A stretch of 52,096 nt of DNA, taken from positions 124,001 to 176,096 of the forward strand of contig CDROCS010001231.1 of assembly GCA_977020255.1 (NCBI GenBank). The letters are read 5' to 3'. The translations under genes and the position numbers were made by a program. The notes beneath the pieces are model-generated. The model saw nothing but the letters and a program-made list of their open reading frames with translations. It was not told the DNA's origin and did not search any database. Positions 6,401 through 52,096 of this stretch are shown in pieces. Within the stretch, counting starts at the first letter, position 1, and the number at the start of each line of letters is the position of its first letter. The DNA comes from Obrimoposthia wandeli (taxonomy: Eukaryota).

Positions 6401-7074
6401 TTATTTGTTAAATACGTTATCAATATATATTTACATTCACATTTGTATAAATTTTATTGTTTACAAGAAAATAGTTATATTTATTTGATAAATACTTCAA
6501 TAAATTCCTCTAAACAATAATTATGTACATTCAAATTTCAAACACTTCTAAGTTTAACAAGAAAATTGTTGTATTTATTTGATGTTTTTATAAAAAATTA
6601 TAAATGAAATATTCAGAGATGATATTTTTTTGTTGTGTAACGTGTGGAAAGTCTTCACTTAATAATACTGTTTTAGGTGAAAATATATACAATTTATATC
6701 CATTTGGTTTCCCATTCCCAGGATTTCGAAAATATATCACCAATGCCATTTCCGAACAGAATATTATTATCTGTTCTGTTGTGTAAATGATCTTTCCAAA
6801 GAATCTGGAAGGAAATTTATCTGGATTTTAAAATCCTAAATACTCATATGTCACCTAATTTGACAATTTTTGAAAATAAATCATAAAAGCTTTTGTAGAT
6901 GTGTTGGGAAAATATATTAACTATTTGTTTAAAAAAGAAAAATAAAAATATAAAATTTTTAAAGAAATAAAAGAAAAAAGGGAATTAATTAATTGAAAAT
7001 TAATTGGGAACTTTCCTTAATTAGGGAAAAGTTCCGATTTTTAAAATTGTGCACTTTGGCATTTTGTATATTCA

Positions 7075-7126
7075 ATCTCCGACGGGAAAAAAGCCCGTTT
7101 CGCCCTGCCGGGCTCATCAGGGAGAT
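7075..7126 (-). ncRNA. Type I hammerhead ribozyme (antisense, U3 of 5' LTR)
   Basis: Minus strand reads AUCUCC-CUGAUGA-GCCC-GGCA-GGGC-GAAA-CGGG-CUUUUUU-CCCG-UC/GGAGAU: intact core, perfect stems I (6 bp), II (4 bp), III (4 bp plus A-U), GUC triplet. Predicted cut between 7081 and 7080. Confidence 0.95.
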
Positions 7127-7129
7127 GGC

Positions 7130-7177
7130 TTGTTATCTCTAACTTCGCGGTGGATTCCGCGAAGCCAGAGATAACAA
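7130..7177 (-). other. 21-bp RNA hairpin abutting the hammerhead (also in the 3' LTR, 20031-20078)
   Basis: Minus strand UUGUUAUCUCU-GG-CUUCGCGG-AAUCCA-CCGCGAAG-UU-AGAGAUAACAA; two A/C mismatches on + become G-U pairs on -. Confidence 0.75.
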
Positions 7178-7695
7178 TAATAAAGCCAGGGAAAAGAGGG
7201 AAAGATTCCCCTTTCATGTGCCGACGAATATCGTCGACATGTGGTGTTAGTGTGCGCAAGTGCACCATTCACACACACACACACTCACTCAACATTAACA
7301 CATCACTCAACTCACTCATTCACTCTCACTACTCACTCAATCGCTCACACAATCCCTTGTTCACTCACTCTCCCTACTCACCTATTCTTTGTGCATATGT
7401 GTGTGTTTAATTTGGCATTTTACACCTGCCCAGAATTTTGAATGACGGTGAAATTTCCCGGCTGCACATGTGTGTGTGTGTGCAGAGCCGGGAAATGCCA
7501 GTTTCCTCTGCCCAAATCTCTTCTCCACACCATGTCTGGTAGTGATTCGGGCAGGCAGCGAGGATTGTTAATGGGGACTACACACTGCCGGTTTCCCACC
7601 TGCCCATCTGCTTACAGATTTATAGACACGCAAGAAGGAAATTGCTTCATAAATTTTTCACAATTTATAAAGACAAAATTATTAAATACAAAAAG

Positions 7696-7997
7696 CGAAT
7701 TATTGAAACTATTTTGAATTATATATCGAATTTATGCAATCGAATTATTGAAACTATTTTGAATTATATATCGAATTTATGCAATCGAATTATTGAAACA
7801 ATTTTGAATTATATATCGAATCTAGGCAATCGAATTATTGAAACAATTTTGAATTATATATCGAATTTATGCAATCGAATTATTGAAACTATTTTGAATT
7901 ATATATCGAAATTATGCAATCGAATTATTGAAACAATTTTGAATTATATATCGAATCTAGACAATCGAATTATTGAAACTATTTTGAATTATATATT
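7696..7997 (+). repeat. 45-bp tandem array (~6.7 copies) inside 5' LTR
   Basis: Unit CGAATTATTGAAAC(T/A)ATTTTGAATTATATATCGAATTTATGCAAT; units 3 and 6 share a CTAG variant. Confidence 0.95.
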
Positions 7998-8082
7998 ACA
8001 ATTTTGAAATACAACTACAATTTTTAGGATCATGATTTTGATTAAATAAATGTTGTTTGCAAGTTTTTGGACTTTTAACAAT

Positions 8083-8096
8083 TGGTGAGCCCGAAG
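8083..8096 (+). promoter_or_regulatory. Primer-binding site (tRNA identity uncertain, Trp- or Ile-like)
   Basis: TGGTGAGCCCGAAG 2 nt after the 5' LTR; TGG complements the tRNA CCA end. Confidence 0.8.
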
Positions 8097-9118
8097 AGCG
8101 GACACACAAAGGTAATTTTGTTGCGTTTTGTTTTTGTTCTTATTGTTGTTATAAGTATATTTACTTTTAAAAAAAAATTTAAAATAGAATTTATTTTCAA
8201 AAACTGTAGTGTAGTATTTTTAATACATTTGTTGATAAATACTATATTTTGAATAAGGTCCCTAAAGGTTTGTAATATTAAATACGTTGTAATTCATTTT
8301 TAATAAGATTATACTGTATTTTTGGAAAAAAAATTATACTGTATATATATATATAAAAATTTTATTTATTTTTTTTAATAATTTCTTGATTATAATAATT
8401 AAAGTAAAGTAAAAATACTTTGTGGTACATACCACCAAATATTTATCGGGGTTTTATTGTTATTTTTGAGGACAAGTACATTGTCTTTAACTATTAAAGT
8501 ATAAATTTAGGACAAATAAGAACACATTTATAAAATAAATTTTTGCAAACGTGTTATTGAGTAAAATAATATCGATTTAGAATTTTCACAAAATTTATTT
8601 TAATATTTTTACTGATTCAGGTTGGAAATAAAATACACTAGGGTTAGCAAATTAACAAATTTTCATAGTTTTTGAAACAGTAGTTTTTGATTCAAAATTA
8701 TCCTGTGGTTGATTGAAAATATATTAATAGTTTATCTTGACATAATTTAAAATTAACAAATTTTCAATATCGGTTTTTAAAATAAAAATAGTGATAACAG
8801 ATTTTACTTAAAAATATATTAATAAGTTAGAAATTTTTCTATTACTTTGGTTGAAAGTGCAGCTCAAATCACGGTAATCGATTATCATAAGGCCGAGCTG
8901 TATTTTAATCACATAGCAGAAATAATTCCTGACTGTTTTTAAAAATTCATTTATTTAAAATATAAAATTATTTAATCGTTTTCAACAAAACTAGACAACA
9001 ATATATAAACACATAAATTAATTTTCGACCCAGTACGCAGGATAATAGTGAACAATACACAAAGATTTCAAAATCTAAACGTAGTGCTAATCTTCACTGG
9101 AGACGCATTCAGACTAGA

Positions 9119-12100
9119 TTGGTAAGAACTAACACAAGTGAAACACTACCACAGAGACCTAAATCCCAGATAAATTTTAGAACAAATAACGAATTTTTCC
9201 CTGAAACTCCGTTAGTTCACCAACACACGGATCGCTTAATTTCAACCGACTCTGAAAACCAAAACCTAACATCAAATTCAGATACAGAAAGTTTATCCTT
9301 ACCACAAACATCTGACTCAGACAACTCGTCAGAAACATCAGAAACAGTGGCAGAACCAGTACCACCTAACATAGAAATAAATAACGAACAAATAAACGAA
9401 GTACCTCAAATGGCAAATCATAGATTAAACATACCACTAGACGCATTTAATGGTGATAAATCATCTTTACCAGAATTCTTGAATAGATATGATTCTTTTG
9501 CTCAAGCATTCGAATGGACAGACCAAGAAAAACTTAGAGTTTTTCCAGCATACCTAAAAGGCACTGCCCTAACCATTTATAGAGGACTAACAAATCTACA
9601 AAAAGACACATGGGAACACTTAGTCCAGCATTTCCAAAATATGGTTTTAGGAGCACAGTCCGACCAGAACTACATAAATCAATTTAGACAACGAGAGCAA
9701 CATGTAGGAGAACCCACAAATATATTCGCAGTCGAATTACGACGACTTGCATTAAAATCTTTTCCCGAAATAGAAGAAGCACAAAGAGAACGATTACTTT
9801 TACATCAATTTTTACATGGATTAAATAACAAAATTCGAGATCACCCTGCCTTACTAGAAGTAGAAAATTTTCAACAGGCTATAGGAAAAGCTCAACTAGT
9901 AGAAGCAAGACTGAATATGATACAGCAAACCGAAGTTTCAGCATTATCTTTTGAAAAAATAGAACGACCACAAACGCCACCAAACTACAACCAATCTAGG
10001 AATTTTAACCAAGATACTCAATATAATTTTCAAAATCCTCAACAATTTAGACCACCAATAAATAATTTTTATAGAAACCAGACAAACAGAAATTTTGCAA
10101 ACTCACAATTTACACAAAGATTTTTTCAAAAATGCACAAATTGTGGACTCCAAAACCATACAATAGAAAATTGTCGAAAATTAAGTAACATAAAATTTTG
10201 CAGATTTTGCAAAAAAGACAATCACACAATTGAAACTTGTAGAAAATTAATAAATAGACAGAGTAATAATACACTACCAAGGAATAATAACTTCAATAAA
10301 CCAAATAATTATGACAATAATCAAAATAGATATTTTAATAATGATACAAAATTTTGTAAGATTTGTAATATGAAAAATCACAACACCAATGACTGTGGAA
10401 AATTAAACACAATGATGAATCAATTTGGAAACACAACAATAAAACAACAACCACAAGTTCAAAAAACAGTACAATTCAGTACTCAAGATCAACAATATAC
10501 CCCAAGAAACCCTATTCACACTATAGAAAATACAGAAACAACTCCAAACACAGACGAATTAGCATTGTTAAAATTACGACTTAAAGAAATACACCAACAA
10601 TGCCATAACAATGAACCACAAACAGATAGAACAAACTTACAATCCGAATTTGGAGACATGTTTAGAGATAGTTGTTTGACATTACAAAAAAATAAATATA
10701 CAATCACAAAAACAAACCAAACTACTCAAACACAAGAAAAGAAAGTAAAACACAAGAAAAATCATAAAACAATAAAAAATCAAAAAACTAAAATTTTTAA
10801 GAATACAAATAATCTTAATAAAATGATGAAAAAATTATGGAAAATTATTCAGATAATATTAATAATATGTCTAATTATGAACATGATAAAACCAATTAAT
10901 GCTTTAGAAGCATATGATTGTTCAAAATATAAAATTCAAAATAAATATTCTTTAATGGATTTACAGCAATGTGCAGACGCTGACCCAAATGAGGTAAAAA
11001 TCCAAAATACTAAGTTGTATCAAGTATATCAGGAAACAGATTTCATATATGCAGAAGTTTTCGAATGTAGAGTACATGTAGAGACATTTATAACATATTG
11101 TGGACAACATAGTCACAATTCAATAGTAAAACCAGCATTAGGAAAAACACCAATAATAGTTGACGCTTTAAATTGTAAAGATGCTTTCGCAACAGGAGAA
11201 TTGAGAATAGATAGAGAAATTAAAGTCCGAGCGGCGAAAAATAAAATAATTCAACAAATGATATCCGTTGTAGGTACGATTAAATCTGATGGAGAATGTA
11301 CAACAGGAACTTATGTAGTAATGGGAGTTAAGCAAAGTGGTTTAGTAGTTATTAAAAATTTTGAAGTCGAACTAAGAACTTTCAAAGCAACATTCGACCC
11401 TTCTACAAACACAATGGTAACAATGCCATTTTGTGAAGCAAACATAGGTCACTGTAACACGGGTTCTTCAATACTTTACTACAAAGTAAAAATCGATCAA
11501 TGTAAATTAATACATTTAAAATCAGAAACTTTTCAAATAATTCAAGGAAAAAGATTTAGAGATGATCCGGAACTAGATCAACAAATTCCAAAGGACATAC
11601 ACAAAATATATAGAACTAGAAAAATACGTAAAACACCAACTCCAACTATATTAATGTCTATTGAACAAGGTTCAGGAATGCGATTTATTAAAAAGAAAGA
11701 GGAATCCCGATGTGGACACTCTGTTTATACAACTAATTATAAAGGAATATATTTAAGTAATGAAAAAATACATAATGCAAAAACGACACCAACTAAATTT
11801 GATATTAAAAATTATGATTATTTTAACAATAAATTAGATTATTTTTATCACAAAGGACTAATGACAATAGAAGCAATATATAGAGAAACCATAATGAATG
11901 ATTGTAAATTAAATCAGGAAATATTAAAAACGAAATTGGCAATTATTGCAACTAACCCAGAATTAATAACACCATTATTACCATTAGCTGACGGTACTTT
12001 TGGAAGAGTAATGGGAGAGGTGTTATACACTTATCAATGTAAAAAAGTAATAGTTAACATAAGAAATCATCAAAAATGTACAAAAGAATTACCAATTTCT

Positions 12101-13405
12101 TACAAAAATAATTCATTATTTGTAGAACCAATCACTAGAATCATACTTTTTAACACTTTTAGCATAAAAGAAATAAACTGCTCAAACATAATGGCACCTC
12201 ATTATCAAATTTCAAAATATATTTGGATTTCACTTCCAAGAAGAGATATTGTCGCAGAACCACAAAAATTACAATTAACCACTCTCAGCAACGACATCAA
12301 TATACAATCAGATAACGAATTAAACACAAAAGGAATTTATATACAGGAAGATATAGATAAGTTAAGAAAAGAAATTTTATTTCCACAAATAAGATCCAGA
12401 ATTTTAACACAAATCATAGAAAGATCAGTACCTGACGGAATTAGCCGTCCCGATTACGACTTATTACTTTCTCCAAATCATTTTATAAAAGCCACTAAAA
12501 ACACCATGTCAAAAATATGGGGTAAATTTTTAATTTTTGGACAAGCATTTTCTGGATTAGTTGGAATATATGCTCTATTAATTTGCTTTAAGATTCTTCT
12601 AAGTCAAATTTTATCAACATATTATATTTATAAAGTTGGAGGATTAACATGGAAATTAATCTTAGGATGTTTCCCATTTTTGGCAAAATTCCTTATTTTT
12701 AATCATCATCAAAACATAGTAAACACATTATCAAATGAAATGCGAGAAACAAATATACAAAAAATTACAAGTACCAAAGAAACAGAAAAAACGGAATCTT
12801 CACAATATCCTGATTTAGAAAAATATATAGATAAAACAACTATACAAAAATCAACTGCACCAACAATATATACAATAAATCAAAAAGATAACGATAAACG
12901 ACCATATGTAAAGGTAGAAATTAACGAATATAAACTTAAAGCTTTAATTGACACAGGATCAAGCGTAACAGTTTTAGACGAATCTTTCTTAAAAACACAA
13001 CAAAAATTACTTCTTCTTAAGGAAAATAGTCAAGTCACAGCAGCAAACGGTCAACCCGTAGATATAATAGGAAAATTAGACTGTCTTTTTAAAATAGGAA
13101 ATAAATTCATAAAAATACCTACAAGAATAATGAAAAATTGTCCTTGCCAAATGATCATAGGAATAGATACATTAAGAAGATTAGGAAATAATTTCCACTT
13201 TGATTTTGAAAAAAATCAAATAAAAGACATTTACAGACCTAACGCCAAAGATGAATACGAGTTAGAAATAAAAGGAGATATCATTCTCCAACCAAGAACA
13301 GAAACAATGTTACAACTAGAAACTAACATAATCACAGAAAAATATGTATTATTTGAACCTTATAAATATCAACAAGAAACCTTGAACTACTTTTGCCAAA
13401 TATAA
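9119..13405 (+). CDS. gag-env-pro: Gag-Env-protease polyprotein (1428 aa)
   Basis: Gag capsid-like region, three CX2CX4HX4C knuckles (10133, 10199, 10355); signal-peptide-like MMKKLWKIIQIILIICLIMNMIKPINA (from 10823); Cys-rich ectodomain starting LEAYDC (10904); hydrophobic segments ~12520-12700; aspartic protease LIDTGS (D at 12950). Frame opens on TTG; first ATG at 9410. Confidence 0.93.
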   Translation: MVRTNTSETLPQRPKSQINFRTNNEFFPETPLVHQHTDRLISTDSENQNLTSNSDTESLSLPQTSDSDNSSETSETVAEPVPPNIEINNEQINEVPQMANHRLNIPLDAFNGDKSSLPEFLNRYDSFAQAFEWTDQEKLRVFPAYLKGTALTIYRGLTNLQKDTWEHLVQHFQNMVLGAQSDQNYINQFRQREQHVGEPTNIFAVELRRLALKSFPEIEEAQRERLLLHQFLHGLNNKIRDHPALLEVENFQQAIGKAQLVEARLNMIQQTEVSALSFEKIERPQTPPNYNQSRNFNQDTQYNFQNPQQFRPPINNFYRNQTNRNFANSQFTQRFFQKCTNCGLQNHTIENCRKLSNIKFCRFCKKDNHTIETCRKLINRQSNNTLPRNNNFNKPNNYDNNQNRYFNNDTKFCKICNMKNHNTNDCGKLNTMMNQFGNTTIKQQPQVQKTVQFSTQDQQYTPRNPIHTIENTETTPNTDELALLKLRLKEIHQQCHNNEPQTDRTNLQSEFGDMFRDSCLTLQKNKYTITKTNQTTQTQEKKVKHKKNHKTIKNQKTKIFKNTNNLNKMMKKLWKIIQIILIICLIMNMIKPINALEAYDCSKYKIQNKYSLMDLQQCADADPNEVKIQNTKLYQVYQETDFIYAEVFECRVHVETFITYCGQHSHNSIVKPALGKTPIIVDALNCKDAFATGELRIDREIKVRAAKNKIIQQMISVVGTIKSDGECTTGTYVVMGVKQSGLVVIKNFEVELRTFKATFDPSTNTMVTMPFCEANIGHCNTGSSILYYKVKIDQCKLIHLKSETFQIIQGKRFRDDPELDQQIPKDIHKIYRTRKIRKTPTPTILMSIEQGSGMRFIKKKEESRCGHSVYTTNYKGIYLSNEKIHNAKTTPTKFDIKNYDYFNNKLDYFYHKGLMTIEAIYRETIMNDCKLNQEILKTKLAIIATNPELITPLLPLADGTFGRVMGEVLYTYQCKKVIVNIRNHQKCTKELPISYKNNSLFVEPITRIILFNTFSIKEINCSNIMAPHYQISKYIWISLPRRDIVAEPQKLQLTTLSNDINIQSDNELNTKGIYIQEDIDKLRKEILFPQIRSRILTQIIERSVPDGISRPDYDLLLSPNHFIKATKNTMSKIWGKFLIFGQAFSGLVGIYALLICFKILLSQILSTYYIYKVGGLTWKLILGCFPFLAKFLIFNHHQNIVNTLSNEMRETNIQKITSTKETEKTESSQYPDLEKYIDKTTIQKSTAPTIYTINQKDNDKRPYVKVEINEYKLKALIDTGSSVTVLDESFLKTQQKLLLLKENSQVTAANGQPVDIIGKLDCLFKIGNKFIKIPTRIMKNCPCQMIIGIDTLRRLGNNFHFDFEKNQIKDIYRPNAKDEYELEIKGDIILQPRTETMLQLETNIITEKYVLFEPYKYQQETLNYFCQI
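10904..12780 (+). other. env: Chuvirus/Tas-type (herpes gB-like, class III) glycoprotein domain within ORF1
   Basis: Motifs AYDC..YSL...C, ECRVHV...YCGQHSH, GEVLYTYQC...C..ELP....F..P.TRI, GIY..EDI..LR..I.FP match my recollection of the chuviral glycoprotein family found in Pao/Anakin and nematode elements; not confirmed by search. Confidence 0.8.
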
Positions 13406-15350
13406 TTTGTAAAATAAAAAACAACACAATACCAATCAGAATCCTAAATGCAGACATTAATGAAATTCATCTCAAGGAAGGAGTACGTCTTGGAAAAATA
13501 AGTGTTATTCAAAATATTGAATTAATAGATAATGATAAAATAGAAGATAAATCTACGATAAATTTTAACGATATCAAATTAAATGATTATGAAAAATCAA
13601 AACTTAAAACTTTAACAGAAAAATATGATGTAATATTTGCTAAAAATGAATACGATTTAGGTCGAACAAATTTGATAAAACATAATCTTCCGTTAACAAC
13701 AAACACAGCAATAAAACAACGACCCTACCGAATTCCATATGCCTACAGAGATGAGGCTCAAAGACAAATAAAATGAATGTTAGAAAATGAAATTGTTAGA
13801 AGACGTTTTTCTGCATGGACATCACCTGTTGTTTTAGTAAAAAAGAAAGATGGTTCTTTGAGATTTTGCGTAGACTACAGAAAACTAAACGAAGTCACTC
13901 ACAAAGATACTTATCCACTGCCAAGAATTGATGAAATATTAGACAAACTAAAAAATGCACAAGTATTTACAACTTTAGATTTACAGAGTGGATACTGGCA
14001 AATAGAAATTGAGGAGTCAGATAAATATAAAACAGCTTTCTCAACAGGAGAAGGATTGTATGAATTCAATGTCTTACCATTTGGATTAACCGGAGCTCCA
14101 GCAACATTTCAGAGATGTATGAGCCATATTTTAATGGATGCAGATCACGTAATGGTATATATCGATGACATTCTTATTTTTTCGAAAAATTTTGAAGAAC
14201 ATTTAAAATATTTAGAAAACGTATTCTTAAGATTACAGGTAGCAGGATTAAAACTAAAACCAAAGAAATGTGAATGGATAAAAGATAAAGTAAATTACTT
14301 AGGACATGCTGTATCAGCAAAAGGAATACAACCAGACGAGAGTAATGTAGAAAAGATTAAAAATTTTCCAATCCCAAAAACAGTAAAAAATATATAGGAA
14401 TTTTTAGGGCTTGCAGGATATTATCGAAGATTTATTAGAAATTTCGCACAAATAGCAATACCATTAAATAAACTTATTAAAAAAGATGAAAAATTTGAAT
14501 GGGAAAAAGAACAACAAGAATCTTATGAATATTTAAAACAAAAACTAATCGAAAAACCTATACTTAGATATCCTAATTTTAATAACTCATTTTTAGTTAT
14601 GACTGACGCCAGTGGTTATGCGTTAGGAGCAGTTTTAGGACAACAGGAAAATAACGAAAAAGATCATGTGATAGCATATGCGAGCAGAGGTCTTAAAAAA
14701 CATGAAAAGAATTACTCAACGATAGAAAGAGAATGCCTAGCTATTTGTTTCGCAATGGAACATTTTAAACATTACTTATTAGGTCGAAAGGTTTATGTTT
14801 ACACAGATCAAAGACCATTACAATGGCTTTTAAATCATAAGGATACAACATCTAGATTAATGAGATGGGCATTGATTTTACAAAAATATGATATTGAAAT
14901 AAAATATAGAAAAGGAAAATCTAACGCTAATGCAGATTGTCTATCACGAATAAGAGAAGAAATAAACGAAATAACTGCAAATGACATCGAATTAAATCTT
15001 TTTACAATAATTCAAGCTAAATATGATAAAAAAATAATTACTAAACTTCAAAGCAAAGATAATGAAATTCAGCAAATAACTAAATACATTAGCACAAACG
15101 AAGTACCAACAGATGAAAAATTAAGAAAACATTTAAAAATATACGAATCACGATACAAATATAGTAATGAAATATTATATTATTTAAATGACAAAAATCT
15201 ATATTCACTAGTTATTCCTAAAGAAATTCAGTGTCAATTACTTCTTCAATATCATAATGGAGCCCTAGGAGGACATTTATCATCAAAAAAGACACATTCA
15301 CGATTAAATTTAAAATACTATTGGATTGACATGAAAGAAGATGTAAAAAT
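13393..15350 (+). CDS. pol: Pol: reverse transcriptase, RNase H and integrase zinc-finger start (interrupted in this sequence)
   Basis: WTSPVVLVKKKDGSLRFCVDYRKLN, PFGLTGAPATFQR, YIDDILIFS, TDASGYALGAVL, ERECLAI, NANADCLSR. One frame throughout with in-frame TGA (13774) and TAG (14395); -1 shift needed near 13391 (from PR) and at the A5 run 15345-15349 (into WCKTCEIC). Confidence 0.93.
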
Positions 15351-17666
15351 TGGTGTAAAACATGTGAAATATGTCTTAAACGGAAAAATACTTTACGTAC
15401 CACAAAAATACCTTTAAAGCCAATACCTTATCCATCAGCCCCCATGGAAACTGTTGCCATGGATGTAATGGGACCATTACCTGAAACACCCCGAGGAAAT
15501 CGATATATAATAGTATTTTCTGATTATTTTACAAGATGGCCAGAGGCTTTTCCAACACATGATCATAAGGCTGAAACCATCGCGAAGGTTTTAGTCGAAA
15601 AAATTATTTTTACTTTCGGTGCACCCCGAAAATTATTAACCGACAAAGGTCCTGAATTTATAAATAATGTATTAGCGTCAATAGCTGAAATTTTTCACAT
15701 AAAGACGATCAATACAACACCATATCACCCTCAAACTGACGGGTTAGTAGAAAGATTTAATAGAACCCTCGAAGATATGATGGCATCATACACAAACAAC
15801 AATCAAACAGATTGGGATTTACACATACCTCCATGCCTTTTTGCATATAGAACATCAGTACATGCATCCACAGGAGAAACACCTTTTTATCTTATGTTCC
15901 TCAGAGATCCTCAAATGCCTATTGACCTAACATTACTACAACCTACTACACAATATTTAGAAATACCTGAATATAAAATAGAAATTAGAGAAAGAATAAA
16001 ACTAGCATTCGAAAAAGCTAAACTATTTGTAAAAAACATACAAGAAAATTACAAAGAATATTATGATAGAAGAACTAAGCCATCAAATATAAAAAGCGGA
16101 AGTAAAGTGATGATTCACAATCCACAAATCAATGTAGGATTGTCTCACAAATTATCAAAACCATACAAAGGACCATATACAGTCATTAGTACCAACGGAA
16201 CCAACATAACAGCTAAACTAGATAATGAACCAAAATCAAAAGAAATAAGAGCACATATAAACAGATGTCGAGAAATACCTGAGGAGAATACAAAAGTAAA
16301 AAGTCACAAATATAACTTAAGATCAACTAATGATAATACAGTTCTACAAATGTTGACAATAAAAAACTCACAAAAACAAAACAAAACTATTTTGAGTCAT
16401 CAAACCAGAAATACAATAAAAATATCAATAAAAGAAATTGGTAAAATAATGATGTTATTGATAATATATTTTATAATAAAATATAACCTACTGAAAGTAA
16501 ACGCAACAAACATAAATGACAATCAATCAATCATACAACAACAAACAAATAAATACGACTCAACAACTCATCTCATAAAAAATTTTGGATTAATAACAAT
16601 AATACCTAAAATCACATCAATAAAGTTAAAAATTTCTCTTTTTACAAACAAAACAGGAAATGTGCAAATCACACAAACAGATAGAAAACAAAATATAATT
16701 ATTTCAGGAATAAAATCACAAAAATATACAATACCATTTTTAAGAACAGAAACACAATATAAAATAAGAATTAAGTCGAAATTAAAAAATATAACACTCT
16801 ATGAAAGAATTATAGAAACTCACATATACCTAGCATCAATATTAAAAACAACAGCAAAATATATATCAAAACATAAAATAATGATAAAATGGGAATTTCA
16901 ACTAAAAATAGATGACTTAGATAAAGCCCTCATTAGAATTAGATATAGAGGACATAATGCTAATTTTTGGAAAGACTCAGAAAAACAATTAGAAAATACA
17001 CAAACTAAAACAAATTTAACCATAGAAAATATAAGATATCCAGAGAAAATAATAATAGACAATAGAGAATGCGTAATCACTAATAAACCAATAATGTACA
17101 GACAATGGAGTCAAAAGTTTGAAAGTTATAAAAATCTAACAAAATTAACAATTTTAGGAAATAAGATATCCAAACTATATCAACCTACAATTTTTTGTGG
17201 TCGTTGGTCAACAGTAAAAATTAAGAAATATGTTAAAGATATAACCACAAAACAATTGCTACATACCACAACATTTACATCAAAAATTTACAGAGTTACA
17301 AATCAAGTTGAAATTACGGAAAAAATAAGAATTAAATTAAAATTAAAAACAACAGAAATAATATCATATAAATCATTTAATGAAAGTTTAAAAATGCACT
17401 ATAGTAAACAAGAACATTCAAGGAATGAAAATAAAGAAGAACTTATAATAATAGTTATAGTAATCGAAATAATTACATTTATAAATCAAATATCATGGAA
17501 AATGTTAATTTTGAAACATACAAAAACGATAGAAACAAAACAACGAAAACACTTTTGTGGGCCCCCAGGCCCTTTTACTATTTATATTATCCCCAAGGAT
17601 GATAATTCTTCAGAATTATCCATAAATACTGTAATAGAAAATAGAAAAAGAAATATAACACAATAA
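15351..17666 (+). CDS. Integrase core and GPY/F domain fused in frame to a predicted secreted/membrane protein (signal-like segment, FN3-like repeats, TM)
   Basis: CEIC zinc ligands, AMDVMGP / LTDKGPEF / GLVERFNRTL (D,D35E), KPYKGPY. Then MMLLIIYFIIKYNLLKVNA (16449), YTIPFLRTETQYKIRIKSK, IKWEF...RIRYRG...W, hydrophobic LIIIVIVIEIITFI (~17442-17500). Integrase call is firm; FN3 call is inference. Confidence 0.85.
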   Translation, partial: WCKTCEICLKRKNTLRTTKIPLKPIPYPSAPMETVAMDVMGPLPETPRGNRYIIVFSDYFTRWPEAFPTHDHKAETIAKVLVEKIIFTFGAPRKLLTDKGPEFINNVLASIAEIFHIKTINTTPYHPQTDGLVERFNRTLEDMMASYTNNNQTDWDLHIPPCLFAYRTSVHASTGETPFYLMFLRDPQMPIDLTLLQPTTQYLEIPEYKIEIRERIKLAFEKAKLFVKNIQENYKEYYDRRTKPSNIKSGSKVMIHNPQINVGLSHKLSKPYKGPYTVISTNGTNITAKLDNEPKSKEIRAHINRCREIPEENTKVKSHKYNLRSTNDNTVLQMLTIKNSQKQNKTILSHQTRNTIKISIKEIGKIMMLLIIYFIIKYNLLKVNATNINDNQSIIQQQTNKYDSTTHLIKNFGLITIIPKITSIKLKISLFTNKTGNVQITQTDRKQNIIISGIKSQKYTIPFLRTETQYKIRIKSKLKNITLYERIIETHIYLASILKTTAKYISKHKIMIKWEFQLKIDDLDKALIRIRYRGHNANFWKDSEKQLENTQTKTNLTIENIRYPEKIIIDNRECVITNKPIMYRQWSQKFESYKNLTKLTILGNKISKLYQPTIFCGRWSTVKIKKYVKDITTKQLLHTTTFTSKIYRVTNQVEITEKIRIKLKLKTTEIISYKSFNESLKMHYSKQEHSRNENKEELIIIVIVIEIITFINQISWKMLILKHTKTIETKQRKHFCGPPGPFTIYIIPKDDNSSELSINTVIENRKRNITQ

Positions 17667-17855
17667 TCAAAATTTTTTAAAAACCGTTTAAGTAACAAAA
17701 AATGTTAGTACTATTATGTAAATCTAAATTAATTAGGAAATAGAATAAAAATTTGATATATATATTTTTAAAGACGATTTAATGAAATAATATTAAAATA
17801 AAATCACCAGGAAACGCATCCTGAAATTTAATAATGGTTATTTTTAGATATAAAA

Positions 17856-18251
17856 ATGAACAGATTGGCAAAAGTTTGTAAAAAATGCAAAAAATTAGAG
17901 AAAAAGATTCGAGATGTTTCCAGACAGCATGACGACTACTATATAAAGATCACAACTCAAAATGAATCACTGAAACAGTTAATAAAACAAAGTGTGGAAG
18001 AAAAATTGAATAATGATTTAACAATTGACGAACTAGAAGGGAGATTGACACATAGTTTTGGCAGAATAGACAATTTAATACCACAAACTTTAAGTCAACG
18101 ATCAACTATAGCCTCATTAAGAAGACAAATGATGACCTATAGCGACATGATAAACTTTTATTTGACCATTAATCCTACTATCCCAACTAATACAACACTT
18201 GATGATGGATATGACTCGGATATGAACATTGGTGAACAAAATTCTGGTTAA
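17856..18251 (+). CDS. Accessory ORF, 131 aa, predicted coiled coil
   Basis: ATG-initiated intact ORF inside the element; CKKC followed by heptad-like LEKKIRDV...LKQLIKQSVEEKL...LEGRL. Confidence 0.65.
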   Translation: MNRLAKVCKKCKKLEKKIRDVSRQHDDYYIKITTQNESLKQLIKQSVEEKLNNDLTIDELEGRLTHSFGRIDNLIPQTLSQRSTIASLRRQMMTYSDMINFYLTINPTIPTNTTLDDGYDSDMNIGEQNSG

Positions 18252-18419
18252 ATTATAATCATACATCCTTCTTTTGTACAAATTGTCTAATTTTTTTTTA
18301 ATAAGTTTATTTTCATGACAAATCCCACATACTGCATGGATAAGACTGATATTTTTATAACTTTAAGACTGTGAAATAATTGTATTATTTTATTCAACTA
18401 ACAAATCTATTAAAGCAGA

Positions 18420-19592
18420 ATGGATAACAATCACCTGGATACGACTCCAGACCAGCTCACTCGGTCAGATCAAACAAAAAGCACAGCAAAAATAGAAAGA
18501 GGAAAAACGGAAAATATGCCAGAAAGGTGGTTTTTAGCAAAATTCTTGTATCAAAAGATGCGTCAGTTTAGCATTGCATACTTTAGAAACAACGGAGGAA
18601 GAAAAATGTTTTCAAATCAAACATTTCTTCCTAATAATAAAATTACCAATAAAATTACCACAGAAGAAAGAACTAGCGCACTTATTTTTTCCAATGAAAA
18701 AAGACCAACCCATATGGCTCTCAGTGAAATATTCCCCAACATTAATTGTGAAAAAATATATATTCACGTGGCACTAGGAGTAGCCCATTTAAAAACCAAA
18801 TCAGATAAGACATTAAACTTTCTGATGATAGGAAATCACACCTACACCTTACAAGCAGCTCAATTAGAAAATCAATATAGCATAAAAATAGGAAGAGGAC
18901 CAAATCTATTATTTATAGAAAAAATAAGAAAAGCAGAAGAACCTCAACAAATAGCCCTTTTTGAATTAAAAAAGAAGCCAGCAATTTTATTCCTCGATTG
19001 CGAAATGGTGATATCAGTAGATAAACAGCCAGTGTTAGCAAGTGTTTCTATTATAAATTACATAGGTAACGTAATTATAGATACACTGTGCGTAACTAGA
19101 AACAGAGTAAGAAATTACGTTACTAGAATAACTGGACTGTCAGATAGAAAGTTACAAGGATGTAGAGATGCTGATGAAGTAATTGAGGAAGTAAAAAACA
19201 TTGTGTATGGTAACATCATCGTAGGTGTGGGATTAACAAACGATTTAAAAGCTTTACGCCTACAGAAATGGATGTTATTCAACATTGTTGATTTAGGAAT
19301 ATCCAAAAGCATAAAATCAGAACTAAATCACAATCACCCAAATATTGGACTCGCCAACATGGTGCGGAAATACTTAAATATAGAAACACAAAAAGGAGTT
19401 CACACTAGCATGGAAGATGCAAATCACACCCGAAAAATTTTCATAATGAAGGAGGAAATGTTGATTAGAGAGTTTGATTTGACCGAGGTGATGAATCCAC
19501 CATCTAGCGAGAACAACCCCAGTTCATCGTTCTCGCATAAGACCGGAAACTCGGAGTCCGGTACACAAAACTCCCCGATTTTGTTGGATTAA
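18420..19592 (+). CDS. Accessory DEDDh 3'-5' exonuclease (REX4/ISG20-like) with ~190-aa unknown N-terminal domain
   Basis: ExoI LDCEMV (18996), YVTRITGL, ExoII GVGLTNDLKAL, ExoIII HTSMEDA (19401); all four acidic residues and the His are present. Confidence 0.9.
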   Translation: MDNNHLDTTPDQLTRSDQTKSTAKIERGKTENMPERWFLAKFLYQKMRQFSIAYFRNNGGRKMFSNQTFLPNNKITNKITTEERTSALIFSNEKRPTHMALSEIFPNINCEKIYIHVALGVAHLKTKSDKTLNFLMIGNHTYTLQAAQLENQYSIKIGRGPNLLFIEKIRKAEEPQQIALFELKKKPAILFLDCEMVISVDKQPVLASVSIINYIGNVIIDTLCVTRNRVRNYVTRITGLSDRKLQGCRDADEVIEEVKNIVYGNIIVGVGLTNDLKALRLQKWMLFNIVDLGISKSIKSELNHNHPNIGLANMVRKYLNIETQKGVHTSMEDANHTRKIFIMKEEMLIREFDLTEVMNPPSSENNPSSSFSHKTGNSESGTQNSPILLD

Positions 19593-19782
19593 GGTAGTAT
19601 TGTTATTATTTTATTTCTGTTTTCATTCTTGTCTAAATTTTTAACGATATTTAACCAGACATGATTGTGATTAATAAAACATTGATCAGTTGTAACATAC
19701 AAACAACACTAGGTAACAATAGAAACAAGACAAAATAGTTTAACTAATAATTAAGATAAAAATTATGATTCTGAGGACAGAG

Positions 19783-19802
19783 ACTTTTATGACCCGGAGG
19801 AT
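19783..19802 (+). promoter_or_regulatory. Polypurine-tract-like plus-strand primer region
   Basis: Purine-rich ...GACCCGGAGGAT immediately before the 3' LTR TG; short and imperfect. Confidence 0.5.
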
Positions 19803-19975
19803 TGTTGGGAAAATATATTAACTATTTGTTTAAAAAAGAAAAATAAAAATATAAAATTTTTAAAGAAATAAAAGAAAAAAGGGAATTAATTAATTGAAAA
19901 TTAATTGGGAACTTTCCTTAATTAGGGAAAAGTTCCGATTTTTAAAATTGTGCACTTTGGCATTTTGTATATTCA

Positions 19976-20027
19976 ATCTCCGACGGGAAAAAAGCCCGTT
20001 TCGCCCTGCCGGGCTCATCAGGGAGAT
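19976..20027 (-). ncRNA. Type I hammerhead ribozyme (antisense, U3 of 3' LTR)
   Basis: Identical to 7075-7126; predicted cut between 19982 and 19981, 12,901 nt from the other site. Confidence 0.95.
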
Positions 20028-20598
20028 GGCTTGTTATCTCTAACTTCGCGGTGGATTCCGCGAAGCCAGAGATAACAATAATAAAGCCAGGGAAAAGAGG
20101 GAAAGATTCCCCTTTCATGTGCCGACGAATATCGTCGACATGTGGTGTTAGTGTGCGCAAGTGCACCATTCACACACACACACACTCACTCAACATTAAC
20201 ACATCACTCAACTCACTCATTCACTCTCACTACTCACTCAATCGCTCACACAATCCCTTGTTCACTCACTCTCCCTACTCACCTATTCTTTGTGCATATG
20301 TGTGTGTTTAATTTGGCATTTTACACCTGCCCAGAATTTTGAATGACGGTGAAATTTCCCGGCTGCACATGTGTGTGTGTGTGTGCAGAGCCGGGAAATG
20401 CCAGTTTCCTCTGCCCAAATCTCTTCTCCACACCATGTCTGGTAGTGATTCGGGCAGGCAGCGAGGATTGTTAATGGGGACTACACATTGCCGGTTTCCC
20501 ACCTGCCCATCTGCTTACAGATTTATAGACACGCAAGAAGGAAATTGCTTCATAAATTTTTCACAATTTATAAAGACAAAATTATTAAATACAAAAAG

Positions 20599-20900
20599 CG
20601 AATTATTGAAACTATTTTGAATTATATATCGAATTTATGCAATCGAATTATTGAAACTATTTTGAATTATATATCGAATTTATGCAATCGAATTATTGAA
20701 ACAATTTTGAATTATATATCGAATCTAGGCAATCGAATTATTGAAACAATTTTGAATTATATATCGAATTTATGCAATCGAATTATTGAAACTATTTTGA
20801 ATTATATATCGAAATTATGCAATCGAATTATTGAAACAATTTTGAATTATATATCGAATCTAGACAATCGAATTATTGAAACTATTTTGAATTATATATT
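20599..20900 (+). repeat. 45-bp tandem array inside 3' LTR
   Basis: Same unit order and variants as in the 5' LTR. Confidence 0.95.
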
Positions 20901-23281
20901 ACAATTTTGAAATACAACTACAATTTTTAGGATCATGATTTTGATTAAATAAATGTTGTTTGCAAGTTTTTGGACTTTTAACAGATGTGTTGGGTTGGGG
21001 TAGTGTCGGATTAAGACATGCGCTTTGGAGGCAGCAGCCCACGACCCTCCAGATATTATATGGCAGTTTTTTTCCCTAAAGCAATATATTGCTTTTAAAA
21101 CATTACTTTACTGTCAGTTCACGTCAACTATCAAGTGTTTTAAGAAAATGAAAGTTCTACAAAGTTGCTCACTTTATTTATTTTGTTTTATCGGCAGATT
21201 ATTTCGTTTTTAATTGACAAGCGGATAGTATATGCAGGTACGTTTGGGTAATAGTAGTTATCTATTATTATTTGATAGCATAAAATTGCGTAAAGCAAAT
21301 ATGTGAATTATACTTTTCTTACCAATTTATAAGTTTTTATTATTTTGTATTACACTGTCAAACTAGTATAATATGTCTGGTAAAATATTGAATTATTTGA
21401 TTATTGTTACGAGTTGATTGAATTTACCGTTGTCGTAAACAGAAGAAAACACCTTATATAATTCGACATATTATACAAAATAAGTAGCTGTATTGTAACA
21501 GCTTACAAAAACATTTTCTCAAAATATCAATTTAGTAATATTGTTATCATAATATCATATTCTTGCTTACCAAAATATTAAAAGAGGTATTTCTAACATT
21601 AACTTTTAGTAATCGGACGTTCAGATAGGATGTCTGCAGAAACTATAGCCCATGGACCTACAATATAATAATCCAGCCCTGTGTTCGGGACAAAAGCTAG
21701 CTACCGAAACCAGAAAATAAATCTGGGGTCTCTCTATTTGCAGGTCACGCATTCTATCCCAGAACTACCGTACATTGTAATTTCACCCGAATTTCTAAAT
21801 GGGGATTATGGACCTAAAATTATCAGTAACATATTTTATCAAATATAAATCTTTTAAATTGTAAAAATTAACAAAGCAAAAGGCGATACATATAAACTGT
21901 GGGGAGAAACTATGTCTCATTATTTTTTAAAATAATTTAATCTATAATTTTTTGAGTATTTAAAAATTATTCGAACTGCCTGGACTATATTATTCAGTAA
22001 TTTATTCCAATGCTATTGCAGATTTTCATGGTAAATGTAACAGTCAATTTCATTTATAAAAGTTTATTGTCCAAAACTGATTATACAAATCAAATGTCGG
22101 TTATTTGTAATACATATATTTCATGGGAGAGGCACAAAAGTATGTCTTTCTTCTGAGACGATTTTTTACACGATAGAAGATAATCAGAACACGAGCTAAT
22201 TGTGAAATAGGATACTATCCTCCTGATTGAATGTTATTTTATATTTATTAAGAGGAAATAATAATTACCCAAAAATTAACTATGGCCTATTGCAAAGTGA
22301 TATGTAGCTTTTGAATTTGTTATTGATTTTTATTTTAAGTCAATAGGTTATATTTATAATTACATAATAGCTCAAAGTGGAAGAGATCTAAATCAAATGG
22401 TGACAGGAAAGAACAAAATTCTTTCAACAATGAAGCTTTCGTTAAAAATGTCTCTCCGGTATTTTGATCACTTTATGAACTATCTTACTTTATGGTCATG
22501 TAATAATCTCAAAATATCAATTGCATGCTAGAAATGAAATTAACTTTCAAAATGATTTAATAAGTTGATTAAATGCCATATTGGCCTCACGTTCCAAAAT
22601 AACCATTCACCTTTACCATCTAAGAAATTAATTATTTTTTGGATGAACCCGTTTACTGTCACACTTCAAAATGCAGCTCATGTGGTTTAAATTTATAGAA
22701 GACTTTGAAGTATAGAAATCACGCAAATCCCTAGACTTTTAATCCTGTAAATAATACTCAAATCCATGCAGTTCCCTCTGCACCGAATGAGTCAACCAAG
22801 ATTTACATGAGGACGCTTTTAAAATATAAATAAAATACCTGATTTTAAAATTTTGTCATTGCCTACATTAACATGAGATTTTATTAATTTGGGAATAAAT
22901 TATTCATTATTCTAGCTTCCAAAGTAAATTTTTTAAACTGCCAGAACTAAGGTAACCTAGAATTGATCTTCAACTTGACTGTTATTTTGATTTTATAACA
23001 CCCCATGAAATTCAATAATAAAACTATTCGACGTTTTGTAGTAATATAGTAATGTAATCTAGAGAATAACAAATAAACAACATGTGCATGTGTAAACAAA
23101 TTTCAGGTAGAAAAGATTACATCATAGCTTGAGGGAGACAGAAATAAGTGTATAGAAACTAGGCATAAATAATCACTGACACACACAAATACAGCCAGTG
23201 ACCAGATTTAATACAAGTGCATCTGGTATTGCACTTGAATGTTTGGTGCACACATAATAAGCTCAGCACATACAAACATTG

Positions 23282-25797
23282 TCAATCCTTTTTATCAGCC
23301 TCATCATCTTCATCTAAAATAATTGTAAAGTCACCTGCAGCGTCTTCTTCGTCATCCTTCTCCTCTTCTCCATCATCCTTCTTTTCCTCTTCTCCATCAT
23401 CCTTCTTCTCCTCTTCTTCATCATCCAGCTCCAGAGTGAATGAACCCTCTGCAACATTATCCTCATCTTTCTCTACGCCTTCTTCTTTTTTATCAGTTTC
23501 TTTCTCTTTATTTTCTTTCTTTGTCTCATCTTCCTTTTTATCAGTTTCTTTATTTTTGTCATCTTCCTTTTCTTCAGCATCAGTTTCTTTCTCCTTATTT
23601 TTTTTCTTTGATTCATTTTCCATTTCTTCAGTTTCTTTTTCTGTCTTCTTATTTTCTATCTTTTCATCCTCTTTGTCATCACCTTCAGACTCTTTCTTCT
23701 TATCAGAACTCGTTTCTTTATCATCGGCATCATCGTCTGTTTTCTTTTCTGTTTCTTCTTCATCATCAAGTTCCAGAGTAAAAGAATCTTCAACATCGTT
23801 CTCTTCATCTTTTTTAGTTTCTTTTTTCTCATCTTCTGACTTTTCTGTCTCCCCTTCCTTATTTTCAGACTTATCACTTTTAGTCTTTTTGTCCTTTTTC
23901 TTCTTTTCCTTGGGTTTTTTAGTTTCTTCTTTTTTACCTTTATCTTCCTTTTCTTCATCTTTAGTTTCTTTTTTCTCCTCTTCTTCCTCCTCTTCATCTT
24001 CCTCTTCTTCGCTATCATCATCCTCGTCTTCTTCAGAATCTCCTTTTTCTTTCTTATCATCATCTTCGATATTTTCTTTGTTTTCTTCCGATTCTTCGGA
24101 TTTTTGACTCTAAAAATAAAGATGTGATTATTGGCTTTCATAGAAAACATTAGAAATAAGTACGTACGGGTGCAGGAACAGGTCAAGCAATTGCATTCGC
24201 ATAATTACAATCTAAATAATTGAAACATGCAAATTCGAGTTCAACACGAAATGACATAAACTTTTTCCTGTAGATTACCTTCTTTTCTTTCGCGTTCTTT
24301 TTCTGAATGGAAATTAGTTTTGACAGTTAAACATAAAAATTGTAAATTAATACATCACATTACAAAAGGAACAAGTGAAATAAATATAAAATCAATTTCG
24401 CGCACTCCGATGCGATTTATGGGGTCCTTCAAAAAGTAAAAGTTATTTTTTAATAAATTATATAATGAACTGTAAAAGTTTTAATAAAAATTGTAATTTG
24501 TGTAATTTATTAAAAATATTTTTTTCAACGATTATGCTCAAAATAAAATTAATTTTTATAATCAAAACCTATTTCAAAACGGGAAAAATTTTACAAGTGT
24601 TATCATTTGATTCTGGTGCGGGAAAATAAAATGGGTCATTGGTAAGAGATATTTATGGTTTTTATTTAGCTGAGGAAACATGTAGTTTTTCTCCTGCTCT
24701 AGAGAAATGTGTAAATTATCTTTCGGAAATATTTATTGAATTAGAAAAACCGACCCCGACCTTAACGGCTCGACAAGAATTATCCCGGGTGTGTATCGAA
24801 TTGGAAGAGTTTTCAAAATCCCAGAATCAGAAATCAGAAACGTCTTATAAAATGCAATAATATGTTAGTTGAGACCTTAACATCTGCACTACGACGTTTG
24901 CTTCATCTCCAAAATTGGGTGCAAAGTTTCTAAAAATAGATTTTTCGCGAATAGAAGTGTGAAATGACGACTAAATAATATTTTCTGGAATTTCCCTTAT
25001 AGATTCTTAATTTATGAACTGTTAGCTTCTATTTGAGCTATAACGGACCTCAAGACGGAAATCGGTTCTTTATGAAAATGAGAACGAAAGAAGGAAAGAT
25101 CAATAATATTTCGGTTTTATTACATTACACAGATATTTGTGGGGTTTTAGAGTGTCTAACTGAATGTTGGGGAACTATTTTAACTATACAGTCCCATATA
25201 CTAATTCAGTCAACATCAAATCAAAAATACTCCGAGATTTTGGGTTTCGATCTCCTCGAGTTCCCTTTTTGAGGCACATGAGGATAATTGGTCCTCAGCT
25301 AATCTGAGTACTAATATATAGATTAAATACGAATGAAAATAACAGTTCACAACTATTAGTATTGGCGCAAAATATTTCCAGGGAGAATATGAAGGATTTC
25401 TATTGCGTACCTCTTCCGCTCCGGGGATCTTGAGAAGCACCTCCACATCTTCAGATTCATTGGCCACTGACATGTCTTCGAAGTCCTGACAAAAGAAATT
25501 CATTCAATTCACTGCAAATCCAGTAAAGTACCCCAATATATTCGTCGTCGAGAAAAACATAAGGCGGCAGAGCTTTTGGATTTACACTGCGGATTTTCTT
25601 TAGCACAGTGTCCTTTGTTTCCTGATTGTTTACAAAGCAAATATCAATTTCTGTAAATTCGATTTTACGACCACAAAAAATCATCCTCAACAAGTCTTGT
25701 TTCTTCTTTATCTAAAAGAAAAATAAATATGGAAAAGAATTGGGATACAAACCATTTGATTGCCCGATGTACTTGATACATACACTTTGATACTCAT
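23282..25797 (-). CDS. SH3BGR: SH3BGR-family (glutaredoxin-fold) protein with long Glu/Lys/Asp-rich C-terminal tail
   Basis: Exons 25797-25753 (MSIKVYVSSTSGNQM), 25711-25532 (IKKKQD...EIDI...LPPYVFLDDEYIG), 25485-25411 (DFEDM...), probable 24302-24279 and 24109-23282 (275 aa acidic, stop TGA). All phase 0 with GT-AG. N-terminal domain is firm; joining of the tail exons is inferred. Confidence 0.8.
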
Positions 25798-49828: not shown

Positions 49829-50210
49829 CATACCTTCAAACGTTCAAGTTATAACTGAGTCCGACCCTTTCATATATATTAACGACCACAACCTTTTAGA
49901 TGTATTGATTAAGCATACGGTCACAACCATACCTTTCGTCTTCAAGTCAAAACTGAGTCCGACCTTTTTCATATAGGATTGACTACAACCTTGGGTGTGT
50001 TGGCCAACCATGATGGTCATGACCATACCTTCAAATCCTTCAAATCAAACTGAGTCCGGACCCTTTCATCTATGGACGACCACAACTTTAGATGTTGATT
50101 AAGTATAGATATTATGACCATACCTTCAAACTTTCAAGTCAAAACCGAGTCCGACCCTTTCATCTATGGACGACCACAACCCTTAGGTGTAAGTTGGCCA
50201 ACAATAGATT
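49829..50210 (+). repeat. Diverged ~96-bp tandem repeat, 4 copies in ABAB order
   Basis: CATACCTT at 49829, 49928, 50024, 50119; shared AACTGAGTCCGACCCTTTCAT...GACCACAAC; alternating tails (TTAGATGT..GATTAAG versus GGTGT..TTGGCCAAC). Confidence 0.85.
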
Positions 50211-50445: not shown

Positions 50446-50965
50446 GGCGAGATAGGGTGGTTAGCGGAATGGATTTATCTCGAGTAAATCTGACATTTCT
50501 CCCATACTTTATGACTGAGATTGCCGCCCAGATGTTGCCATTTTTCTCTCTCTCGGGCAGCTTCTAAATCTCTCTGCCAACTGCACTGTCGGCGGTTCCT
50601 CCTCTGATCCTCAATCGGTTCCAATGTGTACAATCAATCAGCAACAAGATATACCAGCAGATCTAACTGACGTTGCCACAACAAATCCGAATAGCAACAT
50701 CTGCCTCTCCTGACAACAGATACCAATTTTCCCCTACCGGCTGATGTCTGCCAATCTCTAATCACAGACGAGTCGACAACATAGCAGCGGTATGCTTATC
50801 TCACCGGACTATCCCGACTATGTCAGTATGTGTGTGACACGTCACCATTTCAAACTTCTCTGTCCCTCGCATACTTTGTCGTTATATAAAACTGCATGAT
50901 TTCTGTCAGGCTGACACAACAAAAAGCAACACAGAAATTTCTGGAAAATATATATTTTAAGAATT

Positions 50966-51297
50966 TTATCCACTTTCAATTTATTTGAAATTAGTTATCC
51001 ACTTCTCAATTTGTTTGAAACCAGTTATCCACTTCACCTATTTGAAATCAGTTATCCACTTCTCAATTTGTTTGAAACCAGTTATCCACTTTCGTTCTAT
51101 TTGAAATCAGTTATCCATCACTTCAATTTGTTTGAAACCAGTTATCCACTTCTCAATTTGTTTGAAACCAGTTATCCACTTCTCAATTTATTTGAAACCA
51201 GTTAACCACTTCTAACGGTTTTTGAAACTAGTTATTCACTTCTCAATTTATTTGAACCAGTTATCCAATTTTCAATTTGTTTGAAACCATTTACCCA
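50966..51297 (+). repeat. 30-bp tandem array (~11 copies) inside third LTR
   Basis: Unit TTATCCACTTCTCAATTTGTTTGAAACCAG with scattered variants. Confidence 0.92.
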
Positions 51298-52096
51298 ATT
51301 ATGAAAGTTTGTCGAGTTACAATTGTTGACTTCGTCCCACAAATTTAACTTATTAACAATTGTGAGAGCTCGACTAAGAATAGAACAAGGATTGAGCGTA
51401 GGTCATTTATTTGTTTTTATGTTGATAATATTTAGTTTATTGTAATAGTTTATTTTAAAAGAAAATTGAATTGATTTTGCTTTACATTTTAGTTTTATTG
51501 TCACATTTGACATTAAAATTTTAATTATATTCATTGTAAATTTATTTAAATTTTGATAGTGATTCATTTTATTTTTTCAATATTTAGTTGTAATTTATTT
51601 TTTGGATTTTATGTTAATTTGTTTACTTTTTGTAATTATTTAATTTAATTTGATTGTTAGACATTCATTTCCGATTATTATTTTTTTGTATATATACATT
51701 CTAATTTGCTTTAGTCTATATTTTATTACATATATATAATTAATAATCTGAACATACAGATCTACAACATTTTCTTGGTTATTTGAACTCATTTGAAAAT
51801 TATCTTAGTTTTACAACCTTAAAAAGAGCTTACAATTTCAAAAAAACTTATAACATTTTATATTTTAAAATTTGTGATTCGTATAAGTATCCGAACTTTT
51901 ATATTACCTGATTTGATATATTAGATATAAAATACTAAACATTGAGTGTTTGAGGTGTCATAGCTTATAATAAGCCTCGTAGGTCAAAAATACATTTTCT
52001 ACTACATAGAAGTAAGAGGTGTTTAAAGCTTGCGCACAAGCCTCGTCGGTCCAAAAATACATTTTCATAATTTTCATATAGTTTGATAGGGCTAGG

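Follow-up and report, generated by a model that had tools for sequence, protein, structure and literature searches.

How is an envelope protein (Env) made when its gene lies, in one reading frame, between gag and the protease, and does this order belong to a family or to a single copy? The question is raised by a Ty3/gypsy retrotransposon with long terminal repeats (LTRs; 14.1 kb, 6902-20983) in a stretch of 52,096 nt of Obrimoposthia wandeli DNA (assembly GCA_977020255.1, contig CDROCS010001231.1, positions 124,001 to 176,096, forward strand), called the window below and used for all coordinates. The family frame was found to code for about 2,760 residues from Met 9410, in the order Gag, signal 1, Env, membrane anchor, protease (PR), reverse transcriptase (RT), RNase H, integrase (IN), signal 2, ectodomain 2 and anchor 2; judged from its sequence, the chances are put at roughly two in three that it is made as one polyprotein crossing the membrane of the endoplasmic reticulum (ER) twice.

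The gag-env-pol frame and its copies

The stop-to-stop frame 9017-13405 (+) of the window copy holds 1462 codons without a stop, and its first ATG is at 9410 (position 9119 is TTG). The following order was found in it: Gag (Retrotrans_gag profile, E 2.2e-5; CCHC knuckles at 10133, 10199 and 10355), a signal-like hydrophobic segment (10820-10912, Met-Met at 10823/10826), the fusion protein, a membrane anchor, given by the first of two hydrophobic segments after the Env ectodomain (12524-12631 and 12641-12700), and the protease, the catalytic Asp codon of which (12950) is conserved in 40/40 copies. The anatomy proposed in the original prediction (Gag, internal signal, ectodomain, membrane segment and protease in one frame) was borne out by these profiles and motifs; its 4.3-kb open reading frame (ORF) is free of stops here but is not a Gag-Env-PR unit, being only the first half of the family frame. 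The parts of this frame and its leader are as follows.

8400-9409 (+): AUG-free leader; the last 131 codons (9017-9409) are in the gag frame
9410-10396 (+): Gag, capsid region and three CCHC zinc knuckles (profile and motif matches)
10823-10903 (+): internal signal segment 1; by eye, cleavage is predicted to follow an Ala
10904-12544 (+): Env ectodomain, Monjiviricetes/gB-type (class III) fusion protein (PF24664, E 8e-90)
12545-12601 (+): H1, predicted Env membrane anchor (insertion cost 0.3, hydrophobic moment 0.18)
12644-12700 (+): H2, predicted to lie as an amphipathic helix on the cytosolic membrane surface (cost 4.0; Lys and Pro inside)
12893-13189 (+): aspartyl protease (E 1.5e-8)
13366-15417 (+): RT (13837-14310), RNase H (14575-14889) and integrase zinc domain; frame broken in the window copy
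15435-16330 (+): integrase core (rve, E 2.4e-12) and C-terminal part
16437-16505 (+): internal signal segment 2, in the integrase frame, Met-Met at 16449/16452
16506-17441 (+): second predicted ectodomain, FN3-like, about 310 residues with six N-glycosylation sequons
17442-17666 (+): second predicted membrane anchor (17442-17498), then a basic tail and the stop that ends the family frame

Other copies: At least 81 places, among 22,892 candidates, matched the env part at 98-100% identity, and the 40 other copies that scored best by env after the window's own, among the 81 matches listed, were taken as the copy set; open-frame counts for the ectodomain are biased by this ranking and were not used. 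Junctions were compared with seven interior stretches in equal intervals of 300 nt. The frame was open across the gag-signal-env junction in 30/39 copies, the anchor-protease junction in 29/40, the integrase-signal 2 junction in 29/37 and the segment from anchor 2 to the stop in 29/35; the interior intervals were open in 23/39 to 34/40. From Met 9410 through the protease 10/39 copies were open, and all 13 tested segments were open in 1 of the 32 copies covering every segment. No stop or frameshift common to several of the 40 copies was found at the env junctions. The single frame is therefore a property of the family, since the junctions are open as often as interior stretches and share no break; stops separating env from gag or from the protease did not appear in other copies, and the polyprotein put forward in the original prediction holds in this respect.

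The end of the ORF at 13405 is a break private to the window copy and not a feature of the family. The frameshifts of this copy near 13390 and 15340 differ from 39/40 and 39/39 copies, respectively, its stops at 13774 and 14395 were present in 0/40, and the stop at 17664 is common to 35/35; this rules out 13405 as a true end of the first ORF and as the site of a programmed gag-pol frameshift, and the 40 other copies rule out an assembly chimera or a chance frame. Frame-changing sites were seen in a single copy in 145 of 180 cases, and 140 of 206 one-base events fell within homopolymer runs, which make up 16% of the bases; long-read error fits these scattered breaks as well as slippage does.

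Selection: The ratio of nonsynonymous to synonymous polymorphism (pN/pS; variants common to at least three copies) was 0.14 for gag, 0.06 for env, 0.05 for PR, 0.00 for RT and 0.09 for IN, with RNase H within 0.00-0.14; the nucleocapsid (NC) linker gave 0.54, on few sites. These values indicate purifying selection on gag, env, PR, RT, RNase H and IN.

Relatives: Six longer database relatives were obtained at 39-43% env identity; env is in frame with the protease or the protease start in 6/6, and with RT, RNase H and integrase too in 3/6; this fusion is conserved at about 40% env identity. Ten long-frame env loci sampled from the genome proved to be one second family (family B), counted once. 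Its gag, env and pol share a single frame that reaches 4645 codons, and downstream of the integrase come a phosphatase of the dual-specificity type (E 7.4e-39), a signal-like stretch and multiple membrane segments.

A predicted second membrane module after the integrase

A signal-like segment and an anchor follow the integrase also in the database relatives P0004 and P0006, where they surround unrelated ectodomains (for P0004 the corresponding stretch matched PF16656 alone, at E 0.068, under the cut-off); counted together, a post-integrase module with other cargo was present in 2/3 pol-bearing database relatives and in the second family of the same genome. The second ectodomain of the window family matched at least 129 places at 95-100% identity. 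By Atlas features the whole extension lies nearest to fn3 clusters (0.88-0.89, recognition 1975), and the part 16560-17150 gave 0.93 against fn3 clusters (recognition 1981), both values being below the recognition level of 2300. The literature search gave no earlier account of a post-integrase membrane module (most subscription papers were outside its coverage); only this module may be new, the flagged gag-env-pol order being known.

For this module several observations stand against the doubly threaded polyprotein. FN3 received no support from Pfam, PDB sequences or AlphaFold, phmmer of the extension against 1.84 billion representatives gave 0 matches, and the FN3 identity is a weak assignment from a single source, the Atlas features; P0003 has an integrase followed by neither signal nor anchor; and the pN/pS of the C-terminal extension, 0.39, points to weaker constraint.

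It is quite conceivable, at somewhat under even odds, that the module is captured host cargo, acting at the host cell surface or drifting, outside the particle, in an otherwise ordinary flatworm GAG-ENV-POL element. The higher pN/pS and the lack of the module in P0003 speak for this, as does the cargo itself, wholly different among the window family, P0004, P0006 and family B; Burro elements, moreover, are known to gather host domains (PMC6431247, in the portion available). The position and the signal-to-anchor layout nevertheless recur in four lineages, the copies counted above keep the module at high identity, and breaks in its frame are no commoner than in pol. Such an origin would bear on function alone and does not conflict with double threading.

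A bolder proposal, by analogy, is distinctly more doubtful: flatworm GAG-ENV-POL elements may be two-glycoprotein retroelements built from one polyprotein that crosses the ER membrane twice, with a conserved fusogen of gB type ahead of Pol, Pol itself looped out in the cytosol between the two anchors, and a swappable captured surface protein after the integrase (FN3-like in the window family, of other folds in relatives), which would bind the receptor as gD or gH/gL does for herpesvirus gB.

Start sites, messages and membrane topology

For the single polyprotein the following course is proposed. The ribosome would scan the AUG-free leader and start Gag in the cytosol; signal 1 would lead translocation of the Env ectodomain to the ER lumen, with the cut between Gag and Env made by the signal peptidase of the host; H1 would halt transfer, and H2 would rest on the cytosolic face of the membrane; signal 2 would direct the FN3-like domain into the lumen, where anchor 2 would retain it, as a second surface protein that may serve the fusogen as its partner for attachment. 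All four products, Gag, Env, Pol and this protein, would then be made 1:1 at membrane assembly sites. An unbroken Gag-Pol-Env polyprotein has a precedent in Atlas virus (PMC9094657, in the portion available).

Leader: The region 8400-9409 contains 0 ATG (shuffle mean 10.9, minimum 2 in 1000 shuffles), which fits scanning to the gag start; 9050-9409 is open in 30/37 copies, and 9017-9409 could possibly be a non-AUG N-terminal extension of Gag. A non-AUG start or a spliced leader is possible for this region, with a donor-like site at 8112 and acceptor-like sites near 9030.

Messages: The continuous frame may also be expressed in parts, messages that begin at Met-Met 10823 and 16449, by splicing or internal starts, being the main source of the second membrane protein and of Env (as Env-Pol), and the full-length message mainly giving Gag. 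The env of Drosophila errantiviruses comes from a spliced message. The Met-Met pairs at both signals are well conserved among copies (10826 kept in 40/40, 16452 in 37/37), a donor-like site lies at 8112 and an acceptor-like T-run-AG 22 nt upstream of 10823, and a Met is near signal 1 in 4/9 related sequences, the window element included. This route is held to be unlikely: without a stop between the parts the genomic message would still give the fusion, the acceptor-like site is weak, of AAG type and missed by stricter splice patterns, and no Met stands within 40 residues before signal 1 in 5/9 sequences (nearest 44-148 residues off). A start at Met-Met 10823, offered in the original prediction as the other option, is accordingly not general; it is possible for the window family. 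Release of free Gag by a -1 frameshift was ruled out: the slippery heptamers of the linker (10687 and 10774) have no downstream structure (z 0.4 and -0.5) and are no denser (5.0 per kb) than in RT (10.8 per kb).

Topology: The insertion cost of H1 is the lowest in the frame. For H2 the cost rises to 5.2-8.1 in seven relatives, the hydrophobic moment is 0.65-0.92, and the segment is amphipathic in 8/8 sequences having it. RT and RNase H are without a membrane segment (best costs 10.1 and 8.3), and the next hydrophobic segment after Pol is signal 2, which resembles a signal and ends in Val-Asn-Ala. Where signal 1 is predicted to be cleaved, the window has a small residue, and 7/7 database relatives covering the position have Ala or Thr. 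The protease is likely cytosolic and H2 a surface helix, on these sequence properties; with H2 as a surface helix Pol would therefore be cytosolic, and signal 2 and anchor 2 would be in the ordinary type I orientation. A profile search aimed at relatives of env in free viruses gave only 4 proteins, all already among the known relatives. AlphaFold without alignments was unusable (pLDDT 33.1 for Env, 31.0 for the second ectodomain), and the PDB sequence search gave proteases and one RT only, among the best 60 of 214 matches.

The original prediction had left the topology open, with a luminal protease if both hydrophobic segments span the membrane; one anchor and H2 stand in their place, and H1 and H2 both spanning, with protease and Pol luminal and functional Pol from a minority form that skips translocation, is highly improbable, as H2, in spite of a Kyte-Doolittle value of 1.69 and a cost near those of the signal segments, is amphipathic with Lys and Pro here and costlier in the seven relatives, RT and integrase must reach cytosol and nucleus (established) and are under purifying selection in frame, and signal 2 would be inverted and the basic tail of anchor 2 placed in the lumen.

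Some points weigh against the single polyprotein. By the conserved Met-Met pairs and the acceptor-like site, spliced messages may exist. A Gag:Pol ratio of 1:1 needs a route to excess Gag, and the scan for frameshift signals gave none. The topology is a prediction from insertion costs on a biological hydrophobicity scale, and signals 1 and 2 cost 3.3 and 3.2, values to which the window H2 is close. Signal 1, finally, may stay as an uncleaved anchor, because gB-type ectodomains may have membrane segments on both sides, two flanking segments being noted for them (PMC13524379, in the portion available).

Place among known elements and surroundings

The element belongs to a Ty3/gypsy family of GAG-ENV-POL retrotransposons that has spread recently. 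Paired TG...CA LTRs (identity 99.66% over 1185 columns, 1 mismatch), a target-site duplication of 4 nt (6898-6901 and 20984-20987), a primer-binding-site-like (PBS-like) stretch and the pol order PR-RT-RNase H-IN were found; RT identity to four relatives was 67-74% in pairwise comparison. Outside the family frame the element comprises the following.

6902-8080 (+): 5' LTR, TG...CA ends, with a 45-nt tandem array
8083-8098 (+): PBS-like stretch, directly 3' of the 5' LTR region
17835-18251 (+): small accessory ORF; no Pfam family above the cut-off, stop kept in 34/34 copies
18420-19592 (+): accessory ORF encoding a 3'-5' exonuclease domain of DEDD type (RNase_T, E 5.4e-7)
19803-20983 (+): 3' LTR, paired with the 5' LTR

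The tandem array within each LTR extends over 7558-8131 and 20461-21034. One pattern match of the PBS-like stretch is a tRNA-Arg(TCT), from a host or bacterial contig, a candidate primer at most. The exonuclease ORF is a complete frame of 391 codons in 4/9 other copies, and its motifs were read by eye as DEDDh; bdelloid Vesta/Juno likewise carry an exonuclease ORF3 3' of pol, there DEDDy and in place of env, whereas the window element has both (PMC5408684, in the portion available).

Flatworm elements: GAG-ENV-POL elements with gB-type env are described from nematodes, bryozoans and flatworms (PMC13524379), and planarian Burro, with env in frame between gag and protease, was termed the first such case (PMC6431247), both in the portions available; the unusual env position implied by the original prediction was hence already in print, and its interpretation is partly supported as a whole. 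The order gag, env, pol is common to the window element and the flatworm errantiviruses (Smed_errantivirus_1-6, group Platyhelminthes_C1a), in the env row of Smed_errantivirus_1 8/8 Cys of the domain I-II stretch and the flanking motifs match the window env by eye, and copy numbers are high in both, up to 215 there and at least 81 here (PMC13524379, in the portion available). For the window element a rhabditophoran flatworm host is likely. In the main text of PMC13524379 the words 'polyprotein', 'fibronectin', 'accessory' and 'exonuclease' each occur 0 times; after the integrase only chromodomains are seen, and no account of processing or topology is given, in the portion available.

Burro: Like Burro/GYPSM1, the element has env between gag and protease, a fusion protein resembling those of mononegaviruses, three CCHC knuckles and accessory ORFs, and it probably makes one polyprotein likewise; the giant size is not shared (Burro over 30 kb and 4,873 residues, window element 14.1 kb and about 2,760 residues), and the portion of the Burro account available names no post-integrase membrane module (PMC6431247). 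On the tested features the window element belongs with the flatworm GAG-ENV-POL errantiviruses and is not Burro proper; unlike Burro, it gave no BCL2, BIR, MATH or ankyrin Pfam match at E 0.05. Of the relatives, P0001 has Bcl-2-like and ankyrin matches as in Burro, and is without RT; P0001, P0003, P0004 and P0006 carry two or three protease-like domains per protein and C2H2-like fingers. The second family (L064-L083, e.g. L066:1494-6746, minus strand), with frames of up to 5301 codons, a long gag-env linker, two protease-like domains and a second DSPc stretch, resembles a Burro-like giant, and its phosphatase cargo is unnamed in the available portion of the Burro account (PMC6431247).

Other systems: Atlas virus (Belpaoviridae) differs in its Bel/Pao lineage, class II Gn/Gc and C-terminal env, with nothing cytosolic after env (PMC9094657, in the portion available). 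The window element is likely not one of the non-canonical endogenous retroviruses of nematodes (NERV). The hosts of NERV are chromadorean nematodes, and a continuous gag-env-pro-pol frame is reportedly found in these elements. As in the window element, env precedes pol in NERV (Sacco et al. 2022, PMID 35550022, cited in the available portion of PMC13524379). A nematode host was not indicated here, a COX1 copy of the assembly scoring 437.7 bits with mitochondrial table 9, 424 bits with table 5 and 421 bits with table 4; table 9 is one that echinoderms also use, this copy sits within a contig of 271 kb, and the assembly is mixed. A search of the assembly for nematode cuticle collagen, run with no positive control, gave no match. 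COX1 genes of bacterial type are numerous in the assembly, and at least 8 near-equal COX1 copies containing TGA (including locus L044), several in large contigs, are likely nuclear copies of mitochondrial DNA.

Elsewhere in the window, 23202-24204 is an acidic and basic repeat region of low complexity; both strands carry open frames, and the plus frame compared with Pfam gave no match. Short tandem families lie at 49829-50190 and 50945-51301 (units of about 95 nt and 30 nt).

Should the module after the integrase prove to belong to the particle, a fixed fusogen and an exchangeable attachment protein would be paired in one element; this division of labour is known from herpesviruses and paramyxoviruses, and no retroelement case was found in the literature searched. 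The window family offers a compact, high-copy case for asking how a single gag-env-pol frame is threaded and processed.

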